Part shown: piece by piece, positions 1,630 through 27,600 of the stretch
How the letters are laid out: the number at the start of each line of letters is the position of its first letter
Numbering within the stretch: the stretch's first letter is position 1
IMG/VR virus record: IMGVR_UViG_3300014720_000044
Location: 1 to 55,958 of that record
Length of the DNA: 55,958 nt
Reading direction: 5' to 3' (one strand)
From: a virus
Taxonomy: Duplodnaviria > Caudoviricetes
Notes under the pieces: generated by a model
What the model was told of the DNA's origin: nothing
Databases searched by the model: none
What the model saw: only the letters and a program-made list of their open reading frames with translations
Made by a program: the position numbers and the translations under genes

Positions 1630-3660
1630 ATGGCAACAAGAATGCAACAGCGCAGAGGAACTGCAGCAACATGGACTGCTGCTGATCCAATACTTGCAGC
1701 AGGTGAAATCGGTTTTGAAACTGATACAAATAAATTTAAAATTGGCGATGGTAGTAATCGCTGGGTAACTCTTGCCTACTTCGTAGATGGCAACTCGATT
1801 ATCGATGGCGCCCCAGGTCTACTTAATACTCTTAACGAACTCGCTGCAGCCGTTAATGATGATCCTAACTTCTTTGCCACTGTTGCAACTAATTTATCAA
1901 ATCACGAAGCAGATACTACAAATGTACATGGTATTGCAGATACAGCCAATCTTGTTGTAACAAATACAAATCAAACATTAACCAATAAGACAATAAATTT
2001 ATCTAATAACTCTGTCAGTGGCACAGTTGCTCAATTTAATACTGCCCTTTCAGATGGCAATTTTGCTACCTTAGAAGGTACAGAAACATTAAGTAATAAA
2101 ACATTGAGCAGCCCAACAATTATTGTTGGCGCTACCACTGTTTCAGACACAGAAATTTCTTATCTTGATGGTGTAACATCATCGATACAGACTCAGTTAA
2201 ATGCAAAAGCAGGTCTAACTGGGGCTTCCTTTACTGGAACACTTACAAATACAGCGTCAATATCAACTACTGATACTACAGCGTCAACTTCTCCTACAAC
2301 AGGATCTATCGTTGCTGCTGGCGGTATTGGTGTAGGCGGAGACGCACACATAGATGGAGACGTAGTAATTGGCGGTAACTTTACTGTTAATGGTACAACA
2401 ACCACAGTAAGTACACAAGACTTAGTAATACAAGATCCTTTGATTTATGTTGGAGAAAGTAATCCTTCAAATATAGTTGATCTTGGTATTGTTGCTTCAT
2501 TCGATGATGGAACATATCAGCATACTGGTTTTGTTCGTGATTCATCTGCTGGAACATGGAAATTATTTAAGGGCGTAACTGATGAACCAACCTCAACAGT
2601 TAATTTTGCACAAGGCTCTTTAGATGATCTTGCTGTAGGAGGACTATCTGCTACTTCATTAACAGTAGGAGATGTTTCAAATACAGAAATAGGATATCTA
2701 AATGGAGTAACTTCTGCAATACAGACTCAGATCAATGGCAAGATTTCTGCTTCAAGTTCAGATACACTAACTAATAAAACAATAAACATGACAAATAATG
2801 GTTTGTCTGGAACTATAGAACAATTTAATGCAGCGCTATCTGATGAAGATTTTGCTACATTAAGTGGAACAGAAACTTTACAAAACAAAACAATATCTTA
2901 TGCAAATAATACTATAACTGTTCAGGTTACAAATGTTTCTGATCTAACTGCTAACGCATCAGAAATAAATGTATTAGATGGCATAACTGCTTCAACTGCA
3001 GAATTAAATATTTTAGATGGAGTTACTGCAAGTGCTTCAGAAATTAATGTATTAGATGGGGCAACGGTATCAGCAGCAGAACTAAATATTCTAGACGGTG
3101 CTACTGTATCAACTTCAGAAATAAATTATTTAGGTGGAGTCACTTCTTCTGTTCAAACTCAACTAGATTCTAAGTCACCGTCGGCAAGTCCAACATTTAC
3201 AGGAACTGTTGTTCTTCCATCCACAACATCAATCGGTGATGTTTCTTCAGATGAAATATCAGTTCTTAATGGGCTGACAGCATCAACAGCAGAACTAAAT
3301 ACCCTCGACGGATTGACAGCATCAACCGCAGAGTTAAATATTCTAGATGGATTGACAGCATCAACTGCTGATTTAAATATTCTTAATGGTGTAACTGCTT
3401 CTACTTCAGAAATTAATATTCTTGATGGGGTAACTGCATCAACAACAGAAATAAACTATGTTGTTGGAGTAACCTCTGCTATACAAACTCAAATGAATGC
3501 TAAGGCTCCGTTGGCAAGTCCGTCGCTAACTGGTACTCCAACCGCTCCAACTGCTTCACTTGGAACAAATACAACCCAAATTGCAACAACAGCATTTGTT
3601 GATGCTGCAATTGAGGCGCTGGCAAGTAGAAATCTAATACTTGACGGTGGCGGGGTATAA
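1630..3660 (+). CDS. Fibre protein with Mtd_N-like N-terminal domain and 13 aa repeats
   Basis: N-terminus QRRGTAATW...PILAAGEIGFETDTxKFKIGDG resembles the major tropism determinant/hyaluronidase N-terminal domain; also APGLLNTLNELAAA, TxTLTNKT and SPxLTGTPTAPT fibre motifs. Confidence 0.8.
   Translation: MATRMQQRRGTAATWTAADPILAAGEIGFETDTNKFKIGDGSNRWVTLAYFVDGNSIIDGAPGLLNTLNELAAAVNDDPNFFATVATNLSNHEADTTNVHGIADTANLVVTNTNQTLTNKTINLSNNSVSGTVAQFNTALSDGNFATLEGTETLSNKTLSSPTIIVGATTVSDTEISYLDGVTSSIQTQLNAKAGLTGASFTGTLTNTASISTTDTTASTSPTTGSIVAAGGIGVGGDAHIDGDVVIGGNFTVNGTTTTVSTQDLVIQDPLIYVGESNPSNIVDLGIVASFDDGTYQHTGFVRDSSAGTWKLFKGVTDEPTSTVNFAQGSLDDLAVGGLSATSLTVGDVSNTEIGYLNGVTSAIQTQINGKISASSSDTLTNKTINMTNNGLSGTIEQFNAALSDEDFATLSGTETLQNKTISYANNTITVQVTNVSDLTANASEINVLDGITASTAELNILDGVTASASEINVLDGATVSAAELNILDGATVSTSEINYLGGVTSSVQTQLDSKSPSASPTFTGTVVLPSTTSIGDVSSDEISVLNGLTASTAELNTLDGLTASTAELNILDGLTASTADLNILNGVTASTSEINILDGVTASTTEINYVVGVTSAIQTQMNAKAPLASPSLTGTPTAPTASLGTNTTQIATTAFVDAAIEALASRNLILDGGGV
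2962..3486 (+). repeat. 39-nt (13 aa) ELNILDGVTASTA-type repeats in two blocks (5 and 6 units)
   Basis: Blocks 2962..3156 and 3253..3486 read from the translation. Confidence 0.85.
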
Positions 3661-3703: not shown

Positions 3704-5212
3704 ATGGCAATTAGAATGCAGCAAAGAAGAGGAACCGCAGCACAGTGGACCTCTGGAAATCCAACATTAGCAGCAGGCGAAATTGGATTTGAAACAGATA
3801 CAGGTAAGTTTAAGGTTGGAAACGGATCATCGACCTGGACTCAACTAAACTACTTCGTAGATGCAAACTCTATACTAGACGGAGCGCCAGGCGCCCTTGA
3901 CACACTTAACGAACTTGCTGCTGCACTTAATGACGATCCTACCTTCTTTACTACTGTTGCAACCAATCTCTCCAACCATGAAGCAGATACCTCAAACGTG
4001 CACGGTATTGCAGATACAACAGTTCTAGTAACACTAAGTGGAACTCAAACTCTAACAGGCAAGACAATTTCTGCAGTAGATAATACTGTAACAATTAATG
4101 CTGCCGATATTACTGATGTCACTGCTTCTGCAGCAGAATTAAACATTTTGGATGGTGTTACAGCCTCTACAGCAGAAATTAATCTTCTTGATGGTGTTAC
4201 AGCAACCACTGCTGAAATTAATACTTTGACAGGAATTACTGCAAGCGTATCAGAACTAAATGTTCTAGACGGAGTTACAGCGTCTACTGCTGAACTAAAT
4301 CTACTAGACGGCGTTACAGCATCCACTGCTGAATTAAATATTCTTGACGGTGTTACCGCAACTGCAGCAGAATTAAATATTCTTGCTGGAGCAACACTTT
4401 CTACTACTGAATTAAATTATGTAGATGGTGTAACCTCTGCAATTCAGACACAATTAAACACATTAGATACAGATAAGGCAGATCTTGCATCACCAACATT
4501 TACTGGTACAACAACAACAGATGATCTTGTTGTGGATGGAGACTTAACTGTAAATGGTACAAACTTTGTAGCAAGTGCAACATCTATCACAATTGAAGAC
4601 AATATTGTTCAATTGGCACATGAAAATGCTGCTAATACAGTAGACCTTGGTATTGTTGTTGGTTATAATGAATCAAGCACAGCAAAACACGCAGGTATTG
4701 TAAGAGATGTTTCTGCTAATAAATGGAAACTTTTTAAAGGTGTGACAACAGAACCTTCTACAACAGTAGATTTTACACAGGGATCTCTTGACGACCTTGA
4801 GTTAGCAAATCTTGCTGCAACAGAAGTTGCTGCTACAACTCTTAAGTATGGAGCAGGCGCACTAAGCGTTGAAACAGAAATTGACAAGAAGACTCCAGAA
4901 CTTTATACATTTACTACAGATGCAACTACAGCAAGAACACTTGCTTTAGGTGATAAGTTTGGATCTCTTAAGTTTACATCTGCAAGCGCAACAACTTTAA
5001 CAGTTCCAGCAAATGCTGATGTAGCATTCCCAACAGGCTCTTATGTTGAACTTTATCAGTTTGGCGCAGGACAGGTAACTGTATCTCCAGCATCTGGTGT
5101 AACAGTCAGATCTACTGACTCTCAGGTTAAACTAAGAACTCAGTACTCTTCAGCGGTTTTGATTAAGGTTGACACCAACGAATGGCTGTTGACTGGTGAC
5201 TTGACTGCTTAA
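3704..5212 (+). CDS. Second fibre protein with Mtd_N-like domain, paralogue of 1630..3660
   Basis: First ~105 aa closely match the 1630 product; same 13 aa repeats and WKLFKGVT-EP...QGSLDDL block; distinct C-terminal domain ending WLLTGDL; AAGGAG RBS. Confidence 0.8.
   Translation: MAIRMQQRRGTAAQWTSGNPTLAAGEIGFETDTGKFKVGNGSSTWTQLNYFVDANSILDGAPGALDTLNELAAALNDDPTFFTTVATNLSNHEADTSNVHGIADTTVLVTLSGTQTLTGKTISAVDNTVTINAADITDVTASAAELNILDGVTASTAEINLLDGVTATTAEINTLTGITASVSELNVLDGVTASTAELNLLDGVTASTAELNILDGVTATAAELNILAGATLSTTELNYVDGVTSAIQTQLNTLDTDKADLASPTFTGTTTTDDLVVDGDLTVNGTNFVASATSITIEDNIVQLAHENAANTVDLGIVVGYNESSTAKHAGIVRDVSANKWKLFKGVTTEPSTTVDFTQGSLDDLELANLAATEVAATTLKYGAGALSVETEIDKKTPELYTFTTDATTARTLALGDKFGSLKFTSASATTLTVPANADVAFPTGSYVELYQFGAGQVTVSPASGVTVRSTDSQVKLRTQYSSAVLIKVDTNEWLLTGDLTA
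4136..4447 (+). repeat. Eight tandem 39-nt (13 aa) ELNxLDGVTASTA repeats
   Basis: Read from the translation of 3704..5212. Confidence 0.85.
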
Positions 5213-5237: not shown

Positions 5238-7313
5238 ATGTCAAAGAAGATTGCGGGTAAGTCGTTTAAAGTAGTGTCACGCTTAAAGGCTTTGGTTAGT
5301 GTTATTGAAGGTTTTAACAGAGCAAATGCCGCCGACTCCGCAGTTGCTGGATCAGGATTAGGTAAAACTGATTCAGGTGCCACATGGAACGTATTTAGAG
5401 GATCCTGGGGTATTTCAAGCAATAAGGCTTCATCTTCTACATCGCATTCTTCATATCCATTAGCAACACTTAATTTTTCTAAGGAAGATGTAACTATAAC
5501 TGCAAAAGGCGTAGGTCCTGGCGTAGGAACTGCCTTCTGGGTAACAGATTCTGATAACTGGTGGGGAACATATGTAGACACTACAAATGTCTGCTCTGCT
5601 TATGGCACTCAGGCAAATACATACGGCGTTGTAGGTTCAACATGTAATGCATACGGAACTCAAGCAAATACTTACGGTGTTGTAGGATCAACTTGTAATG
5701 CATATGGAACTCAAGTAAATGCCTATGGCGTTGTAGGGTCAACTTGTAATACTTATGGAACAAAGGTTAATGCATATGGAACTGTCTGTAATGCTACTAG
5801 CACAAACTATGCAACTGCAATAGGTACATATGCAACTCAATGTAATGCAACATCAACAAATTATGCAACACAGGCTAATGCTTATGGAACTCAATGTAAC
5901 GCTTATACTTCAAATTACGGATGTGTAACTTACGCAACTCAGCAAGTAGGAAATACCTGTAACTCTTCTAGCCCAAACTATGGATGTAGTACATACGGAA
6001 CTCAGTTAGCAAATTATACCTGTAATGCTTTTAGTACTAACTATGGCACTAAAATAAATGCTTATGGAGCCACAGGAAGTACTTGTAATACATATTCATC
6101 TTCTTCTGGAGCAAACTATTCTTGTAAGACGTTTGCCACCAACTATTCCACATTTTGTGCTGCTTACGGCGGTTTGTCATATTCTTGTAACTCATATAAT
6201 TATACTTCAAGTGCAGGATCATCCTGTCAGGCTTTTTCATCTAGTTCTAATACAAACTATACATGTAACACATATGGAACTGGCTATACATGTAATTCTT
6301 ATAACAGTTTTTATTATAACTGTATAGCATATTCTAAGAACACAAACTGTAACGCTTATGGAAGTAGCAAGAGCACTAACTATAGTTGCAATGCGTATAC
6401 AGCGTTTACAACATATAGCCTAGGAAACTGTAAATCTTTCAGTTCATCTCCTATATGTCAAGCCTATGGAAATAGTGCAAGCACAAATTGTAATGCATAT
6501 TCTTCAAGCGCATTCACTACTTATACTTGTAACGCATATACGACAAACTTTGGTGCTACTGCATGGGGAACTCAAGCAACAGGAAGCACATGTAATTCTT
6601 CTAGTGCAAATTATGGACAGGTCTGTAATGCTTATGCTGTATCTGGTTATACCTGTAACGCTTCAAGTGCCAATTACGGAACTAATTGTAGCGCCAATGG
6701 TGTAGTAGGAAGTACATGTAACGCTTATGGAACAAAGGTTAATGCTTATGGAACTATAATTGCTGGATATACATGCAATACATTTGGAACTGTGGTTGCT
6801 AATTATGTAACAAATGTTGCTGGATATACATGTAACACATATGGCACACAGGCTAATGCTTATGGAACTCAATGTAACGCTTATACTTCAAATTACGGAG
6901 CAACTACATATGGAAATGTATGCAATACTTATACATCAAACTATGGACCTACTGCATATGGATATGTCTGCAATACTTATACATCAAACTATGGACCTAC
7001 TGCATACGGATATGTATGTAACACATATGCCAATAGCGACAGCGTTAAGGTTATAAAGAGTATTGCAGGAACAGTAAATACTGTTGCAAACTTCTCCTTT
7101 AATGCAGCGGTTCAGGCAGTAAAAACAATACTATCAGGAAATACAATCACTGTTCGTGGATATTCTAATGCAAATGCAACCACTCAAATTGGGTCAGATC
7201 AGTCTACCTCGTCTACTGGAGCCACAAAGGCCAAGAGTCATGGTATACTTAAAGGAGCAGTAACTTATAGCCCTGCTGCTACCAACGTAATTGACCAGTT
7301 TGAGGTGGAATAG
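5238..7313 (+). CDS. Cys/Tyr/Thr/Asn-rich repeat protein; probable fibre or adhesin with a mirror-symmetric Cys ladder
   Basis: AAGGAG RBS; 36 Cys confined to residues 119-594 in C-N-[AT]-Y-type repeats, flanked by Cys-free beta-rich N- and C-terminal parts. Function inferred from position in the fibre cluster. Confidence 0.8.
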   Translation: MSKKIAGKSFKVVSRLKALVSVIEGFNRANAADSAVAGSGLGKTDSGATWNVFRGSWGISSNKASSSTSHSSYPLATLNFSKEDVTITAKGVGPGVGTAFWVTDSDNWWGTYVDTTNVCSAYGTQANTYGVVGSTCNAYGTQANTYGVVGSTCNAYGTQVNAYGVVGSTCNTYGTKVNAYGTVCNATSTNYATAIGTYATQCNATSTNYATQANAYGTQCNAYTSNYGCVTYATQQVGNTCNSSSPNYGCSTYGTQLANYTCNAFSTNYGTKINAYGATGSTCNTYSSSSGANYSCKTFATNYSTFCAAYGGLSYSCNSYNYTSSAGSSCQAFSSSSNTNYTCNTYGTGYTCNSYNSFYYNCIAYSKNTNCNAYGSSKSTNYSCNAYTAFTTYSLGNCKSFSSSPICQAYGNSASTNCNAYSSSAFTTYTCNAYTTNFGATAWGTQATGSTCNSSSANYGQVCNAYAVSGYTCNASSANYGTNCSANGVVGSTCNAYGTKVNAYGTIIAGYTCNTFGTVVANYVTNVAGYTCNTYGTQANAYGTQCNAYTSNYGATTYGNVCNTYTSNYGPTAYGYVCNTYTSNYGPTAYGYVCNTYANSDSVKVIKSIAGTVNTVANFSFNAAVQAVKTILSGNTITVRGYSNANATTQIGSDQSTSSTGATKAKSHGILKGAVTYSPAATNVIDQFEVE

Positions 7314-7768
7314 TGAGTGATTATAAAGATAAAAGTCTCAAAGATTTTGAGAAAGAGTTTAAATCAGAAAAGCGTTATCGCTATTTATCAAAAATAAAAA
7401 ATGCAATAAATATTTTCCCACCATCTGTACCAAAAAATAATAAAGTAATGGATGGCCCAGATATCTCTAGTATTACTGAGCATATTGCATTTGTAATAGA
7501 TGATGAGATTGTTGAAATTATGCATTGCCAGCCAAAGTTGGCAGCAATTCTTTTGAGCAGTCCAACTATTGTAAAAATAGAAGATGGCAAATTTGCTAAA
7601 CCAGGATGGCAATATAAAGATGGAAAAATAATAAACCCTGCTGGCCAAGAGTCTGAAAATGTGCAACAACAAGAAAGAGATTATTTGCCAACATTTAAAG
7701 AATATTTATTAAATCAAGGAAGTCCAAAACTTTTAACATTTAAAGAATATATAGAAAGTATGAAATAA
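7313..7768 (+). CDS. Hypothetical protein
   Basis: GTG start overlaps the upstream stop, GAGGTG upstream; core IAFVIDDEIV...LAAILLSSP...GWQY. Confidence 0.7.
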   Translation: MSDYKDKSLKDFEKEFKSEKRYRYLSKIKNAINIFPPSVPKNNKVMDGPDISSITEHIAFVIDDEIVEIMHCQPKLAAILLSSPTIVKIEDGKFAKPGWQYKDGKIINPAGQESENVQQQERDYLPTFKEYLLNQGSPKLLTFKEYIESMK

Positions 7769-7769
7769 C

Positions 7770-8531
7770 ATGAAAAGAATATCATTTAATTTACGTCCTG
7801 AAGACAGTATTCTAGATATCCTGCCACCTGAGCCAGGAACTCAGTTTATTCCACAATGGTACAGAGATGGTGAAAAGTATATAGATAGAGAAACTGGTTT
7901 AAAAAATCCCAAAGATCCCTCAAAAAGAGCAGGGGGTATGAAGTCCTGCGTTCCATTTCTCGATGCTATGATTTCTGGATATATACAACAACTATCTGTT
8001 GCTATTAGAATAACCAAGAATAACGGAACAGATCCTGTTGAATGGGAATATGTAGAAAAAGACAAAGACGGAAATTATAATAATCTTAATATAGAGTTTG
8101 GCATTATTAATGAAAGAGATGGAGATTTAGGAGAAACAATTCCTAGACCTTTTGGATATTCTCATAATCATTTGGCATTTACTGGTAAGTGGGGATGGCA
8201 AGTTCCTAAAGGATGGAGCGTTTTGGTTACTCACCCATTAAACAGATTTGATTTACCCTTTACAACAATGAGCGGAATAATGGAAAGTGACAAGTTTATG
8301 TCTGCTGGTAATGTACCATTTTTCATTCAAAAAGATTTTACTGGTGTAATAGAAAAGGGCACTCCTTTATTTCAGATAATTCCAATAAAAAGGGCAAAAT
8401 GGCTTGGATATGTAAAAAGAAAAATAGTTGATGAAAAGGGCTTATTCTTTTCTAATAATGCAAGAGCAGTTCCTTATGGATTTTATAGAGACAAGATGTG
8501 GGAGAAAAAAGTATATGATATGGAAAAATAA
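7770..8531 (+). CDS. Uncharacterised protein, possibly dUTPase-like fold (DUF6065-like)
   Basis: Motifs PQWYR, KSCVPFLDAMISGY, THPLNRFDLPF, GIMESD, IEKGTPLFQIIP; family label is tentative. Confidence 0.65.
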   Translation: MKRISFNLRPEDSILDILPPEPGTQFIPQWYRDGEKYIDRETGLKNPKDPSKRAGGMKSCVPFLDAMISGYIQQLSVAIRITKNNGTDPVEWEYVEKDKDGNYNNLNIEFGIINERDGDLGETIPRPFGYSHNHLAFTGKWGWQVPKGWSVLVTHPLNRFDLPFTTMSGIMESDKFMSAGNVPFFIQKDFTGVIEKGTPLFQIIPIKRAKWLGYVKRKIVDEKGLFFSNNARAVPYGFYRDKMWEKKVYDMEK

Positions 8532-9321
8532 GATACAAAAAAGAGCAAATACTAGAACTGCTTCTTCAGAAGGAGTAATAGAATTTATAAATTTAGATAG
8601 GGTTGTAGAAGGTGAAATGTCTGGCAAACCAGACTATATTACACCAGCAAAGATAACTTTGCCAGAGTGGTATAGAAAACTTCCTATTACAGATAAATTA
8701 TTTGAAAAAGATAAGATTGAAGATCTTACTGCAAAAAGATGTATACCTATATTAGATGCCATGACTACTGGCTATCATATGGTAACTACTTCAGATTATT
8801 ATTTTAATTATGATAAAGAAAAAGAAGAGGGTAGTTTTTCTGGCAGGGAAGATATAATTTCTCAAAAGCCAATAAGTATGCATCCTCTATCTCAATTATC
8901 TACTGCAAAACTATCTCCAGAGTTTATTGAATATGCTTATAAATGGGGAAACACATGGACAATAAAGACTCCTCCAGGATATAGTTGCATTTTTACAAAT
9001 CCTCTTAATGGATTTGAAAGTCCATTTTATACTCTCGATGGCGTAGTCGATACTGATACTTATTTTCAGCCAATCTTATTCCCGTTTTTAATGAAGAAGG
9101 GATTTGAAGGACTTATTCCAGCAGGAACTCCAATAGTCCAGATAATACCTTTTAAGAGAGATGACTGGACTATGAAAATTAATAATAATTTTTCTCAAGA
9201 TTTATTTGATACATACTCTTCAGAAAAGAATTTATACGAAAGTCAAAGATACGATAAAGAAAAGAAACCACTTGGCGGTATGTATAAAAGAGATTATCGT
9301 GTCAAAAAGAAGTATATTTAA
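8515..9321 (+). CDS. Paralogue of 7770..8531, possibly dUTPase-like fold
   Basis: Motifs PEWYR, KRCIPILDAMTTGY, TPPGYS, GVVDTD, IPAGTPIVQIIP. Start moved from 8428 to the in-frame ATG at 8515, which has GGAG upstream and much less overlap. Confidence 0.65.
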   Translation: MIWKNKIQKRANTRTASSEGVIEFINLDRVVEGEMSGKPDYITPAKITLPEWYRKLPITDKLFEKDKIEDLTAKRCIPILDAMTTGYHMVTTSDYYFNYDKEKEEGSFSGREDIISQKPISMHPLSQLSTAKLSPEFIEYAYKWGNTWTIKTPPGYSCIFTNPLNGFESPFYTLDGVVDTDTYFQPILFPFLMKKGFEGLIPAGTPIVQIIPFKRDDWTMKINNNFSQDLFDTYSSEKNLYESQRYDKEKKPLGGMYKRDYRVKKKYI

Positions 9322-9412: not shown

Positions 9413-11443
9413 ATGTCAGATTTTTTTAGTTTTCGTTTGCCACAAGAGTTTGTAAATGATTATAAATCAAAGCCATCACCATTTGGTTTTGCAGACGCTG
9501 GTGGAAATTCATTAGGAGAGATTACGTTTATCCGTACCTACTCTCGTATTAAAGAGGATGGGACTAAAGAAAGATGGTATGAGGTATGTCGTAGAGTAAT
9601 CGAAGGCATGTATTCAGTGCAAAAGAATCATGCTAAAGAAAATAGACTACCTTGGAACGACTACAAAGCGCAGAAGTCAGCACAAGAAGCCTTTGATCGT
9701 ATGTTTAATTTGAAATGGACTCCTCCAGGCCGTGGAATGTGGGCTTTTGGCACTCCCTTAACTATGGAGAAAAGAAATTCTGCAGCATTACAAAATTGCG
9801 CCATGGTCTCTACAAAAGATATAGATCGTAATGATCCAGGTGCACTATTTGCATGGGTTATGGATGCTTTGATGATGGGTGTTGGAGTAGGCTTTGACAC
9901 GGTAGGGGCAGAAAAGAAAATGTCAATTTATAGTCCTACAGAACCAACAGTAACATATGAAATACCAGATACCCGTGAGGGTTGGGTAGAATCTATAAGA
10001 TTACTTTTAAATTCATTTTTAAGACCAAATCAGAACATTCAGGAGTTTAACTACGACCTTATTCGCCCCCTAGGAGCGCCTATAAAGGGCTTTGGAGGCA
10101 CAGCAAGCGGTCCTGCACCACTTATACAGTTGCATAAACAGATAAGGTCTGTAATCGGCGGTAGGGCTGGAGAGACTCTAGACTCTAGAGCCATAGTTGA
10201 TATTGTTAATCTAATTGGTACCTGCGTAGTAGCAGGAAATGTTAGAAGGTCTGCTACCTTGGCTTTGGGTGCAGCAGAAGATCAAGATTTTATGAATTTA
10301 AAAAATTCTGAGATATTTCCAGACCGCAACTCCTTTGATCCAGAAAATCCAGGGTGGGCATGGATGTCTAACAACTCCATTTCTGCGACGGTAGGTACAA
10401 GATACGAAGACTATACAGATCTAATCATTAATAACGGAGAGCCTGGTTTTATATGGCTTGATGTTGCAAGAAATTACGGGCGCTTAAAAGATCCCGCTGA
10501 TGGAAAAGATTACAGAGTCATGGGCTTTAATCCTTGTGCAGAACAACATCTTGAATCATATGAATTATGTACATTAGTTGAAGTTCATTTAAATCGTCAT
10601 GAGTCAAAAGAAGATTTCTTGCGAACATTGAAGTTTGCATATCTATATGGCAAGACCGTTACACTTGTTCCTACTCATTGGCAACAGACAAATGGCATTA
10701 TGCAACGTAACCGCCGTATTGGAACATCTCTAACGGGTATTGCTTCATTCTCAGACACACACGGCTTGCCTGTTGTGCGTCAATGGATGGACGAAGGATA
10801 TGAGACTATTCGTAAATATGATCATGCATATTCAGAATGGTTATGCGTTCGTGATTCCATTAGAGTCACAACTATTAAGCCGTCAGGGTCTGTATCAATT
10901 CTTTCAGGCGCAACTCCAGGAGTTCACTGGGCACCAGGAGGAGATTACTTCTTGAGAGCAATTAGGTTTGGAAATACTGACCCAATGTTGCATTTATTCA
11001 AGGCTGCTGGATATAAGATTGAGGCTGACCTTGTTTCTGCAAATACTAGCGTCGTATATTTCCCAGTTCATTCTGGACATCCACGCTCTGAAAAAGATGT
11101 TACATTGTTTGAGAAGATTGCGCTTGCTGCTACTGCTCAGAAATATTGGTCTGATAATGGCGTGTCTGTAACGCTTTCATTTGACAAAGAAACTGAGGCA
11201 AATCATATTGCGCCTGCGCTTCACATGTATGAGGGACAACTAAAGGCTGTTTCATTTTTGCCGATGGGAAATACAGTTTACCCACAGCAGCCATATACCC
11301 AAATTACAAAAGATGAATACGAGTCATATATTGGCAAGATCAAAAAGATCGATTGGTCTGCTATTTACGACGGTGTAGAAAATCTTGAGGCTCAGGGAGA
11401 GGCTTATTGCACTACAGATTCATGCGAAATAAAAATCTCGTAG
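9413..11443 (+). CDS. nrdJ: Class II (adenosylcobalamin-dependent) ribonucleotide reductase, RTPR-like
   Basis: RTYSR, PPGRG, GNVRRSA, catalytic NPCAEQ, TTIKPSGSVS, C-terminal redox pair CTTDSC; no beta-subunit gene nearby. Confidence 0.93.
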   Translation: MSDFFSFRLPQEFVNDYKSKPSPFGFADAGGNSLGEITFIRTYSRIKEDGTKERWYEVCRRVIEGMYSVQKNHAKENRLPWNDYKAQKSAQEAFDRMFNLKWTPPGRGMWAFGTPLTMEKRNSAALQNCAMVSTKDIDRNDPGALFAWVMDALMMGVGVGFDTVGAEKKMSIYSPTEPTVTYEIPDTREGWVESIRLLLNSFLRPNQNIQEFNYDLIRPLGAPIKGFGGTASGPAPLIQLHKQIRSVIGGRAGETLDSRAIVDIVNLIGTCVVAGNVRRSATLALGAAEDQDFMNLKNSEIFPDRNSFDPENPGWAWMSNNSISATVGTRYEDYTDLIINNGEPGFIWLDVARNYGRLKDPADGKDYRVMGFNPCAEQHLESYELCTLVEVHLNRHESKEDFLRTLKFAYLYGKTVTLVPTHWQQTNGIMQRNRRIGTSLTGIASFSDTHGLPVVRQWMDEGYETIRKYDHAYSEWLCVRDSIRVTTIKPSGSVSILSGATPGVHWAPGGDYFLRAIRFGNTDPMLHLFKAAGYKIEADLVSANTSVVYFPVHSGHPRSEKDVTLFEKIALAATAQKYWSDNGVSVTLSFDKETEANHIAPALHMYEGQLKAVSFLPMGNTVYPQQPYTQITKDEYESYIGKIKKIDWSAIYDGVENLEAQGEAYCTTDSCEIKIS

Positions 11444-11463: not shown

Positions 11464-14400
11464 ATGTCTAGTCCATCAAATCTATACGCCGAAAACATAT
11501 TCGCAGAGCATCCTCAAATATTGTGGGCACTCGATGATAAAGCAGACTATGTTTCTTTAATTCCTGATGCAAACAGAGATACTCTTACTTGGACAATAGA
11601 TGGTGGCACCTCTCAATTAACCGAAGATTTTGTTGATGCGCCATTTCCAGATAGTGTTATTAACAAGATTACAGTTTCATCTGTTACATCAGAATTTTTT
11701 TCGGTAAGCCTAATAAGCCCAACAATAGTAAATCTTAATCAGTTAAACGAAACACTGAAGACATTTTCTATTGGTTCTTATTTTTATACAACAAGTCCAT
11801 ACGCATTGAGCGTTGAGATTGGCTATAGGTATTATGATTCAGCATTAGAAGAATATGTAGATGTATTAAAATCTTATGAAGCATCCATAAAAGATAAATG
11901 GTTCTTTATATCAGAAACATTCAGCCCAGAAGAAGAAAACTCTACCATACAATTACTGATAAAATTTAATTTCTTGGGTCAGTCTTCAACATTATCAGAT
12001 TATGATTTTTATATTAATGGAATAAGTATTGGACAATGGGCGGAAGAGTTTCAGTCAACATCATTAGGAGTTGATACTATTGACTTGCCTTCAAGTGTAG
12101 ATTTATCAATTAACCTTACAGACGATAAAGTAATTGAAGCAGATGCATACGGATTATCAGTTAGCCCTGGATATTATTTTGTTAATAAAAACTCTCTTGT
12201 TGCTAAAAATTTTGGAGTTTCTTTAGTTTTTGGATCTCAGAACGTTACAAAGATTTATAATAATCAGGGCAAGCCATCCATCATAGTTCCATCATTAGGT
12301 ATGATGTCTGAAAGCGGAAGATATAAAGAGTTTACTTTAGAGTTTTGGATTAGAGCAAATAATTCCTCATCCGAACCTAAAAGAATTATTGGGCCAATAG
12401 GGTCTTCTGACGGTATATATTTTGATGGCCCATTTTTAATATTAAAGATAGATAATAATTATGGATCTTATTACATAGGACAATGGGAAAGACCAATGCT
12501 TATAGATTGGCGATATGCCAACAACATGTCTTCGGTTTTAATTAATGGAGAAGAAGTAATATCTATTAATTTTAATAGCGAACTATTGTCATTACAAAGC
12601 GATAAATCTGCTACTCTAAAAGATAAAAACTGGATAGGGTTTTATGCATATCAGAATATAGAGCCTATAGAAATAGATTGTGTTGCTATATATCCATACA
12701 TGGTTCCATCTTTAGTAGCAAAAAGAAGGTTTGTATTTGGTCAAGGAGTTCAATTCCCAGAAAACTTAAATGCATCATATGGTGGAAGTTCTGTTGTTTT
12801 TGACTACCCTTTTGCAGACTATACAAAAAATTATTCATATCCCAATCTAGGTTCATGGACTCAAGCATCTCTAGATAATGTGATAGAAGAAAACGGATAT
12901 TTAACAATTCCGAATGTTCAATCTCCTGCAATAGTTACTAATAGTTTAACTAAAAAACAATCAGAAATGCTTGAAGATTGTAATGCTATAAACAATCCAG
13001 TTCTTGATCCAGACCTATTTTTAAGATTAAAGCCAAACTCTACTTGGAATAGCACTGACTCTTACTTATACTTTGACACCTTTTCTTTGATTAATCAAGG
13101 AACATCTGCGTTCTATGGCTTGTTTAAAAAAGACGCTGGCTTTTCTGGAACTCAAGTTTTAATGAGACTTGAAGATCAAAATTCTAATTATTTTTCTATA
13201 GAATGTGTCAATAATGATGTTAATTATATTTTAAAGTATGGAGAAAATGCTCCAGAAATTATATATCAATCAGTCGGAGTTCCAAATGAAAAAACATTCC
13301 CAGTTGGAATTATTACAAATACTTTTAAGAATTATTATGGAGAGAATGTTGCTCAATTTTTTGCTAATGAATCTTTGCTTAAGATGTATGTAGGTGGAAC
13401 GAAAGATTTTGAAAAAACATTTACTGGTAAAATTTATAAAGTTGCTTTATGCTCAGAAAAAAATATGTATGAAATACAGTCAGTATTCAATGTACTTGGA
13501 GTCCCAAAAGATTATGAAAACATATTTAATCTATACGGTCCAGGAATAGACTACGACGGCGGGGAGTATGATAGAGAGTTCTGGGATTATTATATTGGAC
13601 AGACACAGTCTAATGAAGATGAACTAGATTTAATTTCTCCTACTTTAGAAAACTTTTCGTTCTGTCCTTCATGCTTTATAGAAATAAAGTTAAAAGACCA
13701 CGATCCTAGTTTAGGTATAACCCCTAAAAAATATTTTGATAGTTTTTATATAGATGCTTCTGTTCGTGGGTCATGGAAAGACTATATTCCGCTTTCTTAT
13801 TTTGGACAATATGTATCTGATGAATACGACAATAAAGTGTTTGATCTTGATTTTATTCAGTTTAACATTAACTATCCAGCACCAACTAAATTTAAAGAAA
13901 CAGAAACAATAGATGCAGATGGATGGACATATGAAGAATTAAGTGCCAGTTATTCTTATCCAGAACAGAGAACCTATGAATCTTTAGATAATTATTTATT
14001 TACTGGTTATATCAATTATGAAGATCTGGCAGAAAAATCTGTAAAGACATATTCGTATGATACTTCAGATGCCATTGTTAAAACATATATTACTTTTGAG
14101 TATTTAGAGCAGGGGGCCAATGCGGTAGACTCATACTTTGTTAATACTGAAAGTGTTCCTAAAAATGGAGTTGTTGAGCCAGGATCAAATTGGATAAACA
14201 CTAAATATGAGGTTGTAGATAATGTTATTATTTATCCACCTAACGGCATAGATTTTAACGATCTTGCTATTAGAATTCACATTGAGTTTAATGTTGACGG
14301 AATAAATTATCATCCTATTCAAATTAAAAATTTAGAGTTAGCGTCTCAAGCATTCAATTACGTTGGAACAAATAGCATAGGCACAAGGTTTGGTACAAAT

Positions 14401-15234
14401 GTTTATCCTTATTCAACAAACGGATATTATTTTAATTATAAATCCAAGAATCCGTTTTTGATCTATAAAGGATCTTCGCCTTATTTATATTTAACTAGAC
14501 ATTCTGGAATTGAGATAAGAGGAGACTATGATCCTATTATAAATAGAGGAATAGCAGTTCCAGTTAATTTGAATCAATCAGAAGATTATGAAGTAATGGC
14601 TATGCAAAGTTTAATTAGGTTTAATGGAGACTTTTTCCCTTATGCTCCAACTAAACTAATGCAAATAAATTCAAAAAATAAAGTGATAAAACTTTACATG
14701 GTTCCAAACCACCCTACTGGAAAAAGAGCAAAAATTTATGCTATAGATGGAAACAGCGGAGAACTGTATGACGGAATATCTTTTTATATCAATGGAAAAA
14801 TTGTAAAAGATCCAGTAATTAATATTAATGAATGGGCAATGCTTGGAATGGGCTTCGGCACAATTCTAGACTTCAAATCATACTCTGGATCAATTATGAT
14901 AAATGGCCCTATCATTTTTAATAGCCTTTCTTTCTACCAAACAACCAACCTTAAAGAAATCCAAAAGGTAGAGAATAGACCCTGGGCACGTGTCAAGTTC
15001 TCGGCTGAGGGTACATTTGAATGGGATTATTGGAGCAACTTCTTCTTGTGGCAGGGCATGCTAATACAGTCTTCTTCAAGTTACTATGGAGTAAATCCAG
15101 AAAATGTATACAAAGCCTATACTGGTACAAATAAGATTATAGTTGGTGACGATGCTACTTTTAGTATTCAAGAGTATGAATATTCTATATTTAAGGATGT
15201 TAAATGGCAGTCCACAATCTCAGATGCCGTATAG
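11464..15234 (+). CDS. Large probable virion protein (1256 aa), beta-rich with a LamG/ConA-like segment
   Basis: Long ORF; FTLEFWIR and YINGxxV segments; TGATAAAAT at 11446-11454 just upstream. Confidence 0.6.
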   Translation: MSSPSNLYAENIFAEHPQILWALDDKADYVSLIPDANRDTLTWTIDGGTSQLTEDFVDAPFPDSVINKITVSSVTSEFFSVSLISPTIVNLNQLNETLKTFSIGSYFYTTSPYALSVEIGYRYYDSALEEYVDVLKSYEASIKDKWFFISETFSPEEENSTIQLLIKFNFLGQSSTLSDYDFYINGISIGQWAEEFQSTSLGVDTIDLPSSVDLSINLTDDKVIEADAYGLSVSPGYYFVNKNSLVAKNFGVSLVFGSQNVTKIYNNQGKPSIIVPSLGMMSESGRYKEFTLEFWIRANNSSSEPKRIIGPIGSSDGIYFDGPFLILKIDNNYGSYYIGQWERPMLIDWRYANNMSSVLINGEEVISINFNSELLSLQSDKSATLKDKNWIGFYAYQNIEPIEIDCVAIYPYMVPSLVAKRRFVFGQGVQFPENLNASYGGSSVVFDYPFADYTKNYSYPNLGSWTQASLDNVIEENGYLTIPNVQSPAIVTNSLTKKQSEMLEDCNAINNPVLDPDLFLRLKPNSTWNSTDSYLYFDTFSLINQGTSAFYGLFKKDAGFSGTQVLMRLEDQNSNYFSIECVNNDVNYILKYGENAPEIIYQSVGVPNEKTFPVGIITNTFKNYYGENVAQFFANESLLKMYVGGTKDFEKTFTGKIYKVALCSEKNMYEIQSVFNVLGVPKDYENIFNLYGPGIDYDGGEYDREFWDYYIGQTQSNEDELDLISPTLENFSFCPSCFIEIKLKDHDPSLGITPKKYFDSFYIDASVRGSWKDYIPLSYFGQYVSDEYDNKVFDLDFIQFNINYPAPTKFKETETIDADGWTYEELSASYSYPEQRTYESLDNYLFTGYINYEDLAEKSVKTYSYDTSDAIVKTYITFEYLEQGANAVDSYFVNTESVPKNGVVEPGSNWINTKYEVVDNVIIYPPNGIDFNDLAIRIHIEFNVDGINYHPIQIKNLELASQAFNYVGTNSIGTRFGTNVYPYSTNGYYFNYKSKNPFLIYKGSSPYLYLTRHSGIEIRGDYDPIINRGIAVPVNLNQSEDYEVMAMQSLIRFNGDFFPYAPTKLMQINSKNKVIKLYMVPNHPTGKRAKIYAIDGNSGELYDGISFYINGKIVKDPVININEWAMLGMGFGTILDFKSYSGSIMINGPIIFNSLSFYQTTNLKEIQKVENRPWARVKFSAEGTFEWDYWSNFFLWQGMLIQSSSSYYGVNPENVYKAYTGTNKIIVGDDATFSIQEYEYSIFKDVKWQSTISDAV

Positions 15235-18649: not shown

Positions 18650-19765
18650 ATGTCGGAAGAGATTAAGAAAAATCAACCAGGTGCAGGTGGCGTTCCAGGA
18701 AATTTTAATGGAGAAGGTGCCTTTGCCTCTGGAGGTATTGGTGGTGTAACAAATCCAGGTGCAGATACACTTGGCAACATCCCAACCGCAAACCTTGGTG
18801 TTACAACTGGTCCTAATGCCGTAAATCCTTCGGGTGATGCTGCAAGCGGAATTCTGCGTCCTGAACAGGCACAGCGTTTTATTGACTATGTCTGGGATGC
18901 AACTGTTCTCGCTCAAGATGGTCGTCGTGTGACGATGAGAGCGAACACTATGGAATTGGAAAAGATTAACGTAGGTGAGCGTGTTATCCGTGCTGCTGCT
19001 CAAGCAAGCGGTGCATACACAAACACTGGCGCTACTTTTTCTAAGGTAGAACTAACAACTAAGAAACTTCGCCTTGATTGGGAAGTTTCTGCTGAAGCAC
19101 TAGAAGACAATGTCGAGGGGGCTGCGTTAGAAGATCATCTTGTAAGATTGATGACTAATGCGTTCGGTAATGACATTGAAGATCTTGCTATCAATGGCGA
19201 CGAAGCAACTGCTCCGTTCCTTTCAATCATGAAGGGATTTATCAAGCGTCACAAGGATAATGGCGACTCACACGAGTCTGTCGTTACCGTTGCTGACAAC
19301 GCTTGGACACCAGAAGTAATGCAAAATGTTATTCTAGCAATGCCACGTAAGTACCGTGCACTTAAGAACAATCTTAAGTTCTACGCAGGTACAGATGCCT
19401 TTGCTGGTATCGTAAAGCACAACGGAACACTCGCTGATGCAGTAGCAGAAGCGTTTGCTGGTCGTGTTGCTGGTACATCCGCAAACCGTCAAGCATATCT
19501 TGATGGTGGCGCACAGACATTCGGTGGAGCACGTACAACACGTGTCCTCGGAATCGATGTACAAGAAGTTCCTTACTACCCTGCAGGATATGTCGATTTG
19601 ACATTCCCACAGAACCGTGTTTGGGGCTTCCAGCGTGATATCGTCGTCAACCGTGAATATGTAGCGAAGAAGGACACAATTGAATACACAGTATTCGTCC
19701 GCTTCGGTATTCAATGGGAAGAAGAAGACGCAATCGCCTGGGCAGACGCTGCTGCAGATGCATAA
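18650..19765 (+). CDS. Major capsid protein (HK97-like fold)
   Basis: GGAGGTG RBS; GILRPEQAQRFID, EALEDNVEG, DIEDLAINGD; position after the protease; followed by a terminator. Confidence 0.92.
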   Translation: MSEEIKKNQPGAGGVPGNFNGEGAFASGGIGGVTNPGADTLGNIPTANLGVTTGPNAVNPSGDAASGILRPEQAQRFIDYVWDATVLAQDGRRVTMRANTMELEKINVGERVIRAAAQASGAYTNTGATFSKVELTTKKLRLDWEVSAEALEDNVEGAALEDHLVRLMTNAFGNDIEDLAINGDEATAPFLSIMKGFIKRHKDNGDSHESVVTVADNAWTPEVMQNVILAMPRKYRALKNNLKFYAGTDAFAGIVKHNGTLADAVAEAFAGRVAGTSANRQAYLDGGAQTFGGARTTRVLGIDVQEVPYYPAGYVDLTFPQNRVWGFQRDIVVNREYVAKKDTIEYTVFVRFGIQWEEEDAIAWADAAADA

Positions 19766-24693: not shown

Positions 24694-27600
24694 ATGGCTG
24701 ATGTTCAATCGAATATTCATGTAAATATCGATACGTCTGAAGCGTTAGCCAGTATCAAACTTCTACAAAAGCAGATATCAGCATTCCATGCATCTATGGC
24801 GAAAAGTGGCGCTGCAGCAGCAGCCGTCTCCGCCAATATGCAGCAAAACCTAATAAACTCTCTTAATGCTACAGGCAAATGGTCTGCTTCTATGCGGACA
24901 GTTAAGACTACAACAGAATCATTTACAAATGCCCTAGAAAAAAATAAACTTTCAATGCGAGAATACTTTAGGTATTCTGCTGGAGCAACAAGAACATTTG
25001 GAAGATTTTTTAAATCAGAATTTGATACTATCAATAAGGTAGCAAGAGAACGAGTAAAAGATTTACAGACACAATATATAAAGATGGGTCGTGATGCAAA
25101 CGGTGCAATGAAGGCTATTGCCGTTAGACCACTAGCCCTAGACATGAAGAATCTTGGTACTCAAACTGCAATAGCAGCACAGAGACAGGCTATGCTTAAT
25201 CAATTGTTGAAGCAAGGCTCAACAAATATGCTTAATTTTGGTAAGAATACTCAGTGGGCTGGACGTCAGTTAATGGTTGGTTTTACAGTTCCTTTGGCTT
25301 ACCTTGGAACTGCAGCAGCAAAAACATTCATGAAGTTAGAAGAACAAGCAATTAGATTTAAGCGTGTTTACGGAGAGTTGTTTACAACTGGTCAAGAAAC
25401 TGATAAGATGCTTGCAGAGATACAGTTACTTGCAAAAGAATTTACTAAGTACGGCGTTGCTGTTGAAAAGACTATGGAGATGGCTGCAACAGCAGCAGCA
25501 AGCGGTAAGATGGGGGCAGAACTTCTTGCACAGGTTAATGAGGGAACAAGACTTGCAGTCCTTGGTGGAGTTGAACAAGAGCAAGCATTAGAAACAACTA
25601 TATCTTTAACTAATGCATTTGGTTTAGCAGCAGAAGAGTTAGCGGGTAAGATTAACTTTCTTAACGCAGTTGAAAACCAGACCGTCGTATCTATTGAAGA
25701 TTTAACAATTGCAATTCCAAAAGCGGGTCCAGTTGTAAAACAATTAGGTAGAGATGTAGAAGATCTAGCATTCTTCTTAACTGCAATGAAAGAAGGCGGT
25801 ATCAATGCATCGGAAGGCGCTAACGCACTTAAGTCTGGTTTAGCATCTTTGATTAACCCAACAGACAAAGCAAGCAAGATGCTTGCTGGCATGGGTGTAA
25901 ATATAAATGGAATTGTTGAAGCAAACAAGGGAAATGTTAAAGGCATCGTAATTGATTTTGCTAATGCTTTAAATACCTTAGACCCACTAAATCGTGCTCG
26001 TGCAATTGAACAATTATTTGGAAAATTTCAGTTCTCACGTTTGTCAACATTATTCCAAAATGTTATTCAACAAGGAAATCAGGCAAGTCGTGTTTTAACT
26101 TTAACACAAGCAACCACAGAAGAACTTGCTATATTGGCAGAACGAGAACTAGGAAGAGTAGAAGAATCTACTACTTATAAATTTAAGAAGGCCATAGAAG
26201 ATCTAAAAGTAACTCTTGCTCCAGTTGGAGAAGAATTCCTTAAGGCAATCACTCCAGTAGCAGAATTTGTTGGAAAGATGCTAGAAAAGTTTAATAATCT
26301 TGGCGACGGGACAAAGAAATTTGTTGTTATATTAACAACTCTGTTAGGTGGAATAGGTCCTATATTCCTAATGTCCTTTGGTCTTTTGGCTAACGGTTTG
26401 GCTAATATTATTAAACTATTTGTAAGCATGAAATCTGTTTTCAATCGTACTGGTCAATCTTCAACCATTTTAGGAAATCAAACTCAATTTTTAACAGTAG
26501 AGCAGGCTCAGGCAGCAGCAGTAGCATCATCACTTGATCAAGTGCATGTAAAACTACAACAAACATTTACTTCTGAAGCAGCAGCCCTAAATGCATTAAC
26601 TCAGGCGTATCAAAGAGCAATAACTGCACAAAGAGGTTTTGGTGGAGGAATAATTGGAAAGGGTCGTAAAGGATTTGCTTCAGGAACTAAAAAGGTAAAA
26701 CCATTTTATTTTTCAAGAGGAACAGACACAGTTCCTGCAATGCTTACGCCTGGAGAAGCAGTAATACCAGCAGGTCCAGCACAAGATCCTGCAAACAAAC
26801 CAGCAATTTCTCATATGATTGCAGGCGGAACTATGAAGCAATTTGCTGTTGGAAATATTAATGTTGGTGGAACTAATTATCCAGTACAGGCTAGAAATAG
26901 ATCAAGCGTTACAGCAATACAGTCTATTGTTGATCAAAGTTTAGGAACTGTTGATGATGCAATTAAGATTTCTCTTAGAGAATTAGTAAACGAAACTAGA
27001 GTAACGGTTGCTAAATTTAAAGAACAAATGAGACTTACTCTTGCTTCACAAGGCAAAGTCGCAGGACCACTTTTTGCTAAGTCTGATTGGGAGACTAGGT
27101 CAAGATCATATAATGCAAGCGGTGCAGGAGAAAGAAGAACAATTCAAGATCAATTAAGATCAGATCCATCTAAAGGTGGAAGAGGAATTGTAGCAGGACA
27201 AGCAGAATTAGATCAGGCAAATGCAGCAGCAAAAGCAATTAAAGCAAAAATGACAGAACTAGGAGCAACACAAAAACAAATTAATGCTGCTGTTCAATTA
27301 GATAGAGCACATGTTATAGAAATGTCAAATTCTAAGAAAAAATTATTGGCTGCATGGCATTCAGATGTATGGGTTGCTCAAACGGGCGCAGAGAATAATT
27401 TATCAAACTCATTAAAAAATTCAGAAAAAAATAGAAGAATTTATTTAGATGTATTAAAAAAGTCTGGAGCAACTCAGGCAGAAATTACTGCCATAACTGA
27501 TAAAGTTACAAAAGGTATTGCTTTAACAGGAAAAGAGTTGGAGATTCAGGGCAAGGTTCTTGCCAAAATAAATGCTGATATCGCATCTGGTCAAATCAAA

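Follow-up and report, generated by a model that had tools for sequence, protein, structure and literature searches.

Here we describe a 691-residue protein from IMG/VR virus record IMGVR_UViG_3300014720_000044 (Duplodnaviria; Caudoviricetes), in which 36 cysteines (Cys) are spaced almost identically when read inward from both ends of a long insert. The whole stretch of 55,958 nucleotides that was analysed is called the window, and nucleotide positions refer to it. Comparative evidence strongly supports a fold-back hairpin whose two arms run in register, with the Cys facing their mirror partners. An initial annotation of this DNA had proposed such a hairpin, cross-linked by nested disulfides, as a single-chain fibre. 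The fold-back with facing mirror Cys has gained support from a joined beta-sandwich at its base, from the tips, from mirrored insertions and deletions (indels), from paired Cys changes and from Cys parity; strictly nested disulfides are putative. The idea of a free-standing fibre had to be given up, as the Cys segment is an insertion in a predicted concanavalin A (ConA)-like domain. The gene and its parts were delimited by the open reading frame (ORF) list, the Cys map, profile hidden Markov models (HMM) and AlphaFold2 (AF2) predictions, the latter with their predicted local distance difference test (pLDDT) values:

5238..7313, + strand: gene of the Cys-ladder protein, 691 amino acids (aa), stop codon TAG at 7311-7313 (ORF list, translation, Cys map, homologues)
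5238..5585, + strand: N-terminal half of the predicted split ConA-like beta-sandwich, aa 1-116 (AF2, HMM boundary)
5586..6305, + strand: ascending (left) arm, aa 117-356, Cys 1-18 (AF2 pLDDT ~35, unmodelled)
6291..6323, + strand: tip, the innermost pair C352/C362 around a 9-residue Tyr/Phe/Asn/Ser loop
6306..7031, + strand: descending (right) arm, aa 357-598, Cys 19-36
7032..7310, + strand: C-terminal half of the predicted beta-sandwich, aa 599-691 (AF2 pLDDT 81-97; HMM boundary)
5592..7019, + strand: the 36-Cys ladder as first delimited, C119-C594 (script on the window)
5597..5761, + strand: tandem repeat, 51 nt x 3.2, 85% matches; 17-residue units, left-arm rungs 1-4
6713..6868, + strand: tandem repeat, 57 nt x 2.7; 19-residue units of the right arm
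6880..7018, + strand: tandem repeat, 48 nt x 2.9, 89% matches; 16-residue units, right-arm rungs 1-4

Mirror symmetry of the cysteine register

Recounting the Cys between C119 and C594 reproduced the 35 spacings listed in the initial annotation exactly: 17,17,17,14,18,18,9,12,9,12,21,13,11,10,13,13,9 in the left arm, 10 across the centre, and 9,13,14,9,11,13,21,11,10,11,10,19,19,14,16,16,16 in the right arm. All 17 mirrored spacing pairs agree within one residue, their differences summing to 11; the left arm adds up to 233 residues and the right one to 232, again as described at first. Expressed as position sums, c_i + c_(37-i) lies between 713 and 716 for 18 of 18 pairs. The arms thereby hold their register within ~1.5 residues across 233 residues, around a symmetry centre at residue 357.

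A permutation test of the spacings, suggested together with the first description, excluded chance. The mirror statistic was 11, compared to 71 +/- 10.6 for shuffled spacings; not one of 1,000,000 plain shuffles was equally symmetric, and a single one of 1,000,000 was when tandem runs were kept together. When the arms were compared in direct order the statistic was 89, against 11 in mirror order; therefore the symmetry is a mirror symmetry and not a translational one.

The mirror is limited to the Cys register, as had been claimed. The residues around the Cys follow the same N-to-C direction on both arms (G-3, Y-2, T-1, C, N+1, A/T+2, Y/F+3), and no DNA inverted repeats were found in the gene. 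A DNA palindrome as the source of the symmetry was rejected on this basis. The outermost rungs sit in the tandem DNA repeats listed above, with three 17-residue units on the left opposite three 16-residue units on the right, and in the pairing table the 19-residue units of the right arm stand opposite 18-residue units of the left arm. Separately, a 60-nt direct repeat (5862-5921 and 6840-6899, 97% identical) is shared by the left and the right arm, the two copies not standing opposite each other in the mirror. This points to a unit having been copied recently from one arm to the other.

The composition of the 476-residue Cys-ladder segment is T78 Y64 N64 S59 A56 G50 C36 V23 Q15, the remainder being F10 K7 I6 P4 L3 W1. 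A script confirmed that D, E, R, H and M are absent from the segment, and that the protein has no Cys elsewhere.

A family of split beta-sandwich proteins

Relatives, designated by P numbers, were collected from metagenomic protein collections. A word-indexed search returned 43, and an exhaustive HMMER search returned 248 cluster representatives (clusters at 50% identity) at E<=1e-3, 89 of them at <=1e-10. Common to all are ~110 N-terminal and ~95 C-terminal residues, with a middle that differs. HMM-bounded inserts measure 51-482 aa in 182 relatives and the Cys-ladder protein of the window, which has the longest one. An insert-less form of the family was not found, the shortest members having 227-255 aa; Atlas clusters of 194-199 aa are candidate relatives. 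In the alignment, F26, W50, G95, W101 and W108 of the N-terminal half are invariant.

The statement that the protein belongs to no described family has held up across Pfam, PHROGs, PDB sequences, GenBank phages and the literature. In detail, the Pfam search returned just a sub-threshold match to DUF3659 inside the repeats, no PHROG family matched at E<=0.01, and no PDB sequence matched the family profile at E<=1. Searching 50,697 GenBank phages by tblastn with the Cys-ladder protein and with P0081, a 307-aa relative, gave no match with the low-complexity filter on. Six family members are contained in BFVD, where they are assigned to uncultured Caudovirales and listed as uncharacterised. The literature searched described no such phage protein. 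The tentaclin paper (PMC10743442) concerns C-type lectin hairpins and was set aside as unrelated.

In the AF2 model of the Cys-ladder protein (43-row alignment), the two termini (aa 20-116 and 599-691) come together in one beta-sandwich with pLDDT >90; for the N-terminal half, values are 87-97 over aa 21-110, with strands up to residue 116. The termini of P0081 are joined by AF2 in one sandwich as well. Structural neighbours of the sandwich in the Atlas are ConA-like families, namely the GH43 C-terminal domain, DUF1349 and 3-keto-disaccharide hydrolase, with TM scores of 0.52-0.69 over the individual rows. Foldseek searches of the whole-chain models against the PDB gave no match at E<=1e-3, the disordered insert depressing the scores; the weak matches were legume lectins, rotavirus VP8* and the central fibre of mycobacteriophage Douge (best E 8.9e-3). 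Structure matches in BFVD were minor tail or tail fibre proteins of Arthrobacter, Rhodococcus, Streptomyces and Gordonia phages, at E 1e-6 to 3e-4. Altogether, the base domain is predicted to be a ConA-like, lectin-like beta-sandwich split by the Cys insert.

Mirror register and cysteine parity across the family

The mirror register extends beyond the protein of the window and proves to be a law of the family, which is the central result here. The initial annotation had asked if the symmetry would hold in homologues of other lengths. We analysed 135 full-length representatives of clusters at 50% identity, 120 of which have at least 8 Cys and could be submitted to the mirror test. The test gave p<=0.001 in 31, p<=0.01 in 54 and p<=0.05 in 74 of these, so that at p<=0.01 the 54 observed compare with 1.2 expected; p>0.5 was obtained in 8. 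The symmetry holds at widely differing repeat units. Repeat periods are 5, 8, 10, 12 or 15 residues depending on the subfamily, and because unit lengths vary so widely between subfamilies, the mirror is not inherited as a fixed pattern.

Single relatives illustrate the register. In P0081, the Cys positions sum to 326 for all four pairs; P0006 has 21 pairs, and most of them sum to 627. Long stretches free of Cys also have mirror counterparts, with 33 vs 35, 55 vs 60, 37 vs 35 and 49 vs 48 residues on the two arms of relatives. In two subfamilies a conserved tip motif lies in the middle of the insert, with left and right arm lengths correlating at r=0.976 in the first (n=14, inserts 62-278) and r=0.993 in the second (n=10, inserts 179-403). 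In both, the position of the motif corresponds to a constant offset between the arms, P0021 and P0014 being the two outliers. These tip data make no use of the Cys.

Regarding parity, the number of Cys in the insert is even in 127 of the 135 representatives and odd in one, the remaining seven having none; even numbers are therefore found in 127 of 128 Cys-bearing inserts. Two further Cys motifs occur in relatives. Most of them, including P0005-P0015, have a clasp of four Cys at the insert base, with C-x2-C on its N side and C-x-C on its C side, and one subfamily has a conserved four-Cys 'knob' motif at the insert tip. The Cys-ladder protein of the window has neither. Each of the two motifs might bind zinc or form a disulfide knot.

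Mirrored indels and paired cysteine turnover

Close relatives allow the evolution of the arms to be followed. P0001 and P0002, which are 80% identical, differ in pairwise alignment by three mirrored indel pairs. The first consists of +25 residues on both arms, 26 residues away from the N boundary and 23 away from the C boundary, the second of +14 at 77 and +12 at 89, and the third of +12 at 107 and +12 at 108. Mirrored indels were also detected between P0031 and P0027 (+11/+11), P0023 and P0025 (+8/+8), P0010 and P0008 (+20/+20) and P0077 and P0024 (+29/+26).

Additionally, Cys are exchanged in pairs. C116 and C291 of P0163 correspond to P116 and P280 of P0030, C133 and C485 of P0008 to A132 and I346 of P0005, and C260 and C367 of P0006 (sum 627, rung 16) to V247 and T373 of P0008. 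Judged from the aligned sequences, an even Cys count together with paired turnover is what nested cross-arm pairing would predict, and is not what links between sequential neighbours would predict.

Structure models of the insert

The AF2 model of P0081 reached a mean pLDDT of 79. Here, long paired strands (102-124 and 205-229) leave the sandwich; they have pLDDT 86-97 at the base and hold the outermost pair, C119 and C207. At the other end, strands 149-162 and 167-180, with C154 and C172, form a tip hairpin, the turn of which (163-166) is at most 1.5 residues from the Cys mirror centre at 163.0. As a model, P0081 favours a two-stranded ribbon. We also submitted the inner arm halves aa 226-356 and 357-487 of the Cys-ladder protein as separate chains to a complex prediction. 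The ipSAE values of 0.00 and 0.01 are uncontrolled and count neither way.

The contour length would lie between ~15 nm for a coiled or stacked arrangement and 77 nm for 233 residues at 0.33 nm. The ~75 nm given at first for the fully extended hairpin thus corresponds to one of at least two geometries, and odd spacings, a seven-residue periodicity without a two-residue one and Pro/Gly within segments of relatives, all detailed below, argue against a plain flat ribbon.

Proposed explanation

As a whole, we consider it rather probable that the protein belongs to the tail module and carries an in-register fold-back stalk stapled by disulfides between mirror-paired Cys. The product of ORF 5238-7313 would belong to the tail module of an uncultured phage with a long tail, aa ~20-116 and 599-691 folding into one ConA-like beta-sandwich that the 482-residue insert would leave and re-enter side by side. 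The arms of the insert would run antiparallel in a one-to-one residue register out to the 9-residue aromatic tip loop C352-C362, placing each Cys opposite its mirror partner (the i-th with the (37-i)-th). When the virion has reached oxic water, the Cys pairs would oxidise to up to 18 nested disulfides, so that the insert would consist of 17 covalently closed rings in a row and the tip loop. A stalk stapled in this manner could stay folded without charged residues or a hydrophobic core, and should resist proteases and shear. Its length would evolve by tandem duplication or deletion of repeat units, kept only if matched on the other arm. In terms of function, it would most likely act in the tail-fibre module as an adhesin or spacer that projects outward, with its Tyr/Asn/Thr-rich surface or its tip on host-surface glycans, the lectin-like sandwich being a second functional end of the stalk protein. 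The symmetry, the family, the mirrored indels, the paired Cys changes and the gene neighbourhood are observed, and the split sandwich is predicted, whereas disulfide chemistry, connectivity, real length, oligomeric state and function are inferred.

Several observations weigh against this explanation, or against its simplest geometry, a plain flat ribbon. Firstly, the models are incomplete: AF2 leaves residues 123-591 of the Cys-ladder protein unstructured (pLDDT ~35), and in P0081 the mid-arm residues 128-151 and 174-201 have pLDDT <50. Secondly, 11 spacings out of 17 in the left arm are odd numbers, and in 11 of 17 intervals one arm is longer than the other by a residue. Disulfides between strands have a strong preference for non-hydrogen-bonded sites, and this would require the spacings to be even. 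For hydrophobic and aromatic residues there is a periodicity at lag 7 and none at lag 2, and Pro-Gly occurs within the inter-rung segments of relatives. Some subfamilies have vicinal Cys on one arm opposite C-x5-C on the other.

Thirdly, the family is not uniform. In the mirror test, 46 of the 120 representatives have p>0.05, some having spacings too uniform to test and others an equal repeat period on the two arms with unlike Cys placement. Two relatives have unbalanced arms, P0021 by 27 residues and P0014 by ~15. Compared to their balanced sisters P0022 and P0011 they show a one-sided indel (two left units and one right unit absent, respectively), and could be real bulged variants or products of repeat collapse in assembly. 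P0016, P0017, P0019 and P0020 share the period between their arms (15 or 14 residues) with the Cys placed differently (6+9 vs 14+1; 1+13 vs 8+6), and as far as the sequences can tell, no straight one-to-one ladder can satisfy this placement. Eleven family proteins (P0037, P0041, P0076, P0142 and seven others) have no Cys and yet long inserts, of up to ~250 aa, made of Asn-Tyr-Gly heptads or Pro-Pro-Ser-Tyr-Tyr-Ala-Gly decamers. As these long inserts exist without any Cys, the fold-back is neither dependent on disulfides nor defined by them.

Fourthly, the cytoplasm in which virions are assembled is reducing, and neither a thiol oxidase nor a thioredoxin-like gene was seen among the ORFs of at least 120 aa in the window, a record ~52% complete. 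Since no thiol oxidase is seen there, it is simplest to assume that the Cys oxidise after lysis. In favour of the proposal, other phages are reported to have virion parts joined by disulfides (PMC10811340 and PMC13576161). Finally, the role as a tail-associated, outward-projecting adhesin or spacer is proposed from neighbourhood and composition only.

Alternative explanations

The alternative that survives best keeps the same fold-back and cross-arm links in a compact form, coiled or zig-zag, as a double-stranded beta-helix or two facing beta-meander sheets. We regard it as possible, though not the likelier outcome. With ~0.5-1 nm per repeat unit, the insert would form a rod of ~13-20 nm and not a ~75 nm thread. 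Such a geometry would accommodate the seven-residue periodicity without a two-residue one, the often odd spacings with arms offset by one residue, the Pro-Gly kinks within the units of relatives, and the subfamilies with equal period and unlike Cys placement on their arms. Cys-free P0037 and P0041, with ~100-residue arms, are hardly possible as isolated two-stranded ribbons, and the uncharged Thr/Asn/Ser/Gly/Tyr/Cys composition recalls disulfide-bonded beta-solenoid antifreeze proteins. Conversely, AF2 gives P0081 straight strands of 14-25 residues (at low confidence mid-arm), rung spacings of 9-21 residues are awkward for a regular coil, and a strictly constant i+j register is the signature of direct pairing of two strands.

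Somewhat less likely, hairpins of several subunits, for example three, might bundle into one fibre in which Cys may also link chains. The gene lies within a module of trimeric-type fibre genes, some relatives have N-terminal extensions of short repeated strand motifs, and an uncharged, Tyr-rich ribbon on its own would presumably be sticky. However, the even Cys number, the mirrored indels and the paired Cys changes can all be explained within one chain, and a fibre N-terminal attachment domain is not recognisable in the protein.

Much less support remains for disulfides between adjacent Cys of each arm, arranged like beads on a string, in which case the arms would need just an equal total length; we consider this improbable. 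The distance of 9-21 residues from one Cys to the next is usual for loops, the Cys-ladder protein has an even number (18) in each arm, and P0148 and P0165, with 5-residue periods, could link locally. The parity of Cys per arm was dropped as a test of connectivity, since both models can satisfy it. Equal total length alone does not predict a rung-by-rung register within 1-2 residues, nor indels at matching distances from both boundaries, nor gain and loss of mirror-pair Cys ~100-350 residues apart, nor mirrored Cys-free stretches.

Slightly more improbable still is a role of the Cys as metal ligands or free thiols, the hairpin being kept by hydrogen bonds and Tyr stacking. Cys-free relatives exist, most relatives have the four-Cys base clasp as a possible zinc site, and the assembly compartment is reducing. 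Against this, each rung of the Cys-ladder protein offers two Cys, with no His, Asp or Glu in 476 residues, which is too few metal ligands; the protein has no four-Cys clasp; and the Cys count across the family is near-absolutely even. An even Cys count is a classic mark of disulfide pairing. Lastly, that the symmetry arose by chance, or as a side effect of assembly or of low-complexity tandem repeats in a repeat-rich gene from a metagenomic virus record, has a negligible probability given the shuffling results, the absence of inverted DNA repeats and the many independent relatives that show the mirror at other unit lengths, and given that repeat collapse in assembly would be expected to destroy symmetry and not to make it.

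Relation to known systems

Theta-defensins and hairpins of the protegrin/tachyplesin type provide the nearest analogy for a stapled fold-back, with two antiparallel strands, a turn and nested disulfide rungs. These cystine-ladder peptides comprise ~18 residues with 2-3 rungs two residues apart. By contrast, the segment described here would have 18 rungs, 9-21 residues apart, over 476 residues inserted in a folded domain; there is no sequence relationship, and the connectivity proposed here is a deduction. Mirror-related Cys about a turn (i+j constant), as in these peptides, were found in the Cys-ladder protein, in P0081 and in most pairs of P0006. PMC13408038 applies the term 'cysteine ladder' to theta-defensins.

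In bovine antibodies with an ultralong complementarity-determining region (CDR) H3, a beta-ribbon stalk projects far off a beta-sandwich and ends in a disulfide-rich knob, as set out in PMC8602281 and PMC5994613; the latter gives loops of up to ~70 residues. Many Cys-ladder relatives, with their conserved four-Cys tip motif, would be analogous. In contrast to the stalk of CDR H3, which has no rungs and an immunoglobulin base, the inserts here reach 482 residues on a ConA-like base, and the tip of the Cys-ladder protein in the window is a plain 9-residue loop without a knob. The defensin-type peptides and the CDR H3 stalk are both analogies, on no more than a tenth of the scale.

In the case of ConA-like domains and actinophage minor tail domains, the likeness lies in the predicted fold of the joined halves, while neither Pfam nor PDB sequences match the Cys-ladder protein. 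We know of no ConA-like domain that carries such an insertion; the actinophage matches in BFVD were not checked for one. Insect beta-solenoid antifreeze proteins are also rich in Thr/Asn/Ser/Gly/Cys (with Tyr in one), have few charges and periodic Cys, and are built of short units. However, they stack successive repeats with translationally arranged Cys, whereas here the mirror order (11) prevails over the direct order (89). A constant coil period with translational Cys was not observed, the spacings of 9-21 residues taking 11 different values.

Ordinary trimeric fibres, and distal adhesins whose gene comes right after that of a fibre, resemble the Cys-ladder protein in following fibre genes and in being length-variable, repeat-rich and probably in contact with the host. 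The differences are that the Cys-ladder protein has no fibre N-terminal domain, that its length variation is mirrored within one chain, and that putative intrachain disulfides would take the place of trimer intertwining.

It is a possibility, which we put forward tentatively, that the family represents a new structural class of virion appendage: a single-chain, two-armed ribbon tens of nm long with up to 18 nested disulfides and no trimer intertwining, its length tuned tenfold (inserts of 51-482 residues) by mirrored repeat expansion. In this reading it would be a natural, evolvable molecular ruler or antenna, and a rare case in which compensatory indels, and not substitutions, report a protein fold. 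If the ladder is real, a long thin rod without charge or core could be made from one chain, offering phage structural biology and protein design a length-programmable stapled scaffold. It would also be a textbook-grade example of a fold deduced from indels that mirror each other and from Cys that change in pairs, the family being one that predictors of structure are not yet able to model. The family would further be an abundant, unannotated component of host-recognition modules in uncultured aquatic phages; its clusters at 50% identity number at least 248, while cultured phages have none. Moreover, it would raise the question of how and when 18 disulfides form in a virion that comes from a reducing cytoplasm.

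Genomic context

The window is the whole virus record (CheckV 52% complete, ~37% GC), and encodes a portal, a protease, a major capsid protein, a 2,756-aa tape measure and replication genes. The neighbours of the Cys-ladder gene are the following, with frequencies counted over 79 related viral loci:

1630..3660, + strand: second tail-fibre-like gene, 676 aa, matching PHROG tail fiber families
3704..5212, + strand: upstream tail-fibre-like gene, 502 aa (Pfam Mtd_N 4.8e-15; PHROG tail families; PDB sequence matches)
7313..7768, + strand: conserved downstream gene d1, 151 aa, unmatched in Pfam and PHROG; at most 1.5 kb downstream of the family gene in 39 loci
7770..8531, + strand: downstream gene d2, 253 aa (phrog_7084, 3.6e-32)
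8428..9321, + strand: downstream gene d3, a paralogue of d2; ORF from TTG at 8428, likely start ATG at 8515

The N-terminal domain of the 3704..5212 product is Mtd_N / phage-hyaluronidase-like and matches the N-termini of trimeric phage hyaluronidases at E 2.5e-6. Neither Mtd_N nor another fibre N-terminal domain was detected by Pfam or PHROG in the Cys-ladder protein, unlike in its two upstream neighbours. Fibre similarity lies upstream of the family gene in 63 of the 79 loci, and the C-terminal domain of the 3704..5212 product within 400 nt upstream of it in 42. The idea that stalk length is tuned to the length of the upstream fibre was discarded, as the two do not correlate (Spearman -0.14, p=0.29, 62 loci); Cys counts from this comparison were left aside, some being inflated by approximate ORF starts. 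On the downstream side, d2 or d3 follows the family gene in 59 loci, and d3 shows a weak match to DUF6065 (24.8 bits, under the cut-off of 26.6). Relatives of d2 and d3 in GenBank phages were confined to 49 haloarchaeal tailed viruses, at ~30% identity. Loci L037 and L056 have two family genes a few kb apart on one phage contig.

With respect to the host, the major capsid protein (18650-19765) is 43.5% identical to that of Streptomyces phages of about 133 kb, and one Cys-ladder relative is labelled as coming from an Actinobacteria metagenome-assembled genome (MAG). This hints at an actinobacterial host, at ~37% GC. A prophage search of a genome collection gave one match, a 12-kb MAG contig labelled Bacteroidetes, which is uninformative for the host.

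Other genes of the window deserve brief mention. The tape measure (24694-32964) has 2,756 aa and matches PhageMin_Tail at 6.2e-24. Tail length usually follows a rule of ~0.15 nm per tape-measure residue, which implies a tail of roughly 400 nm, unusually long. A 1,256-aa ORF at 11464-15234, without Pfam or PHROG match, precedes a small ORF and the portal gene, where the terminase would be expected; of the 79 related loci, 10 have it conserved. A ribonucleotide reductase gene (9413-11443; phrog_367, 2.6e-142) stands between fibre module and head genes, an order that is shared by several related loci.

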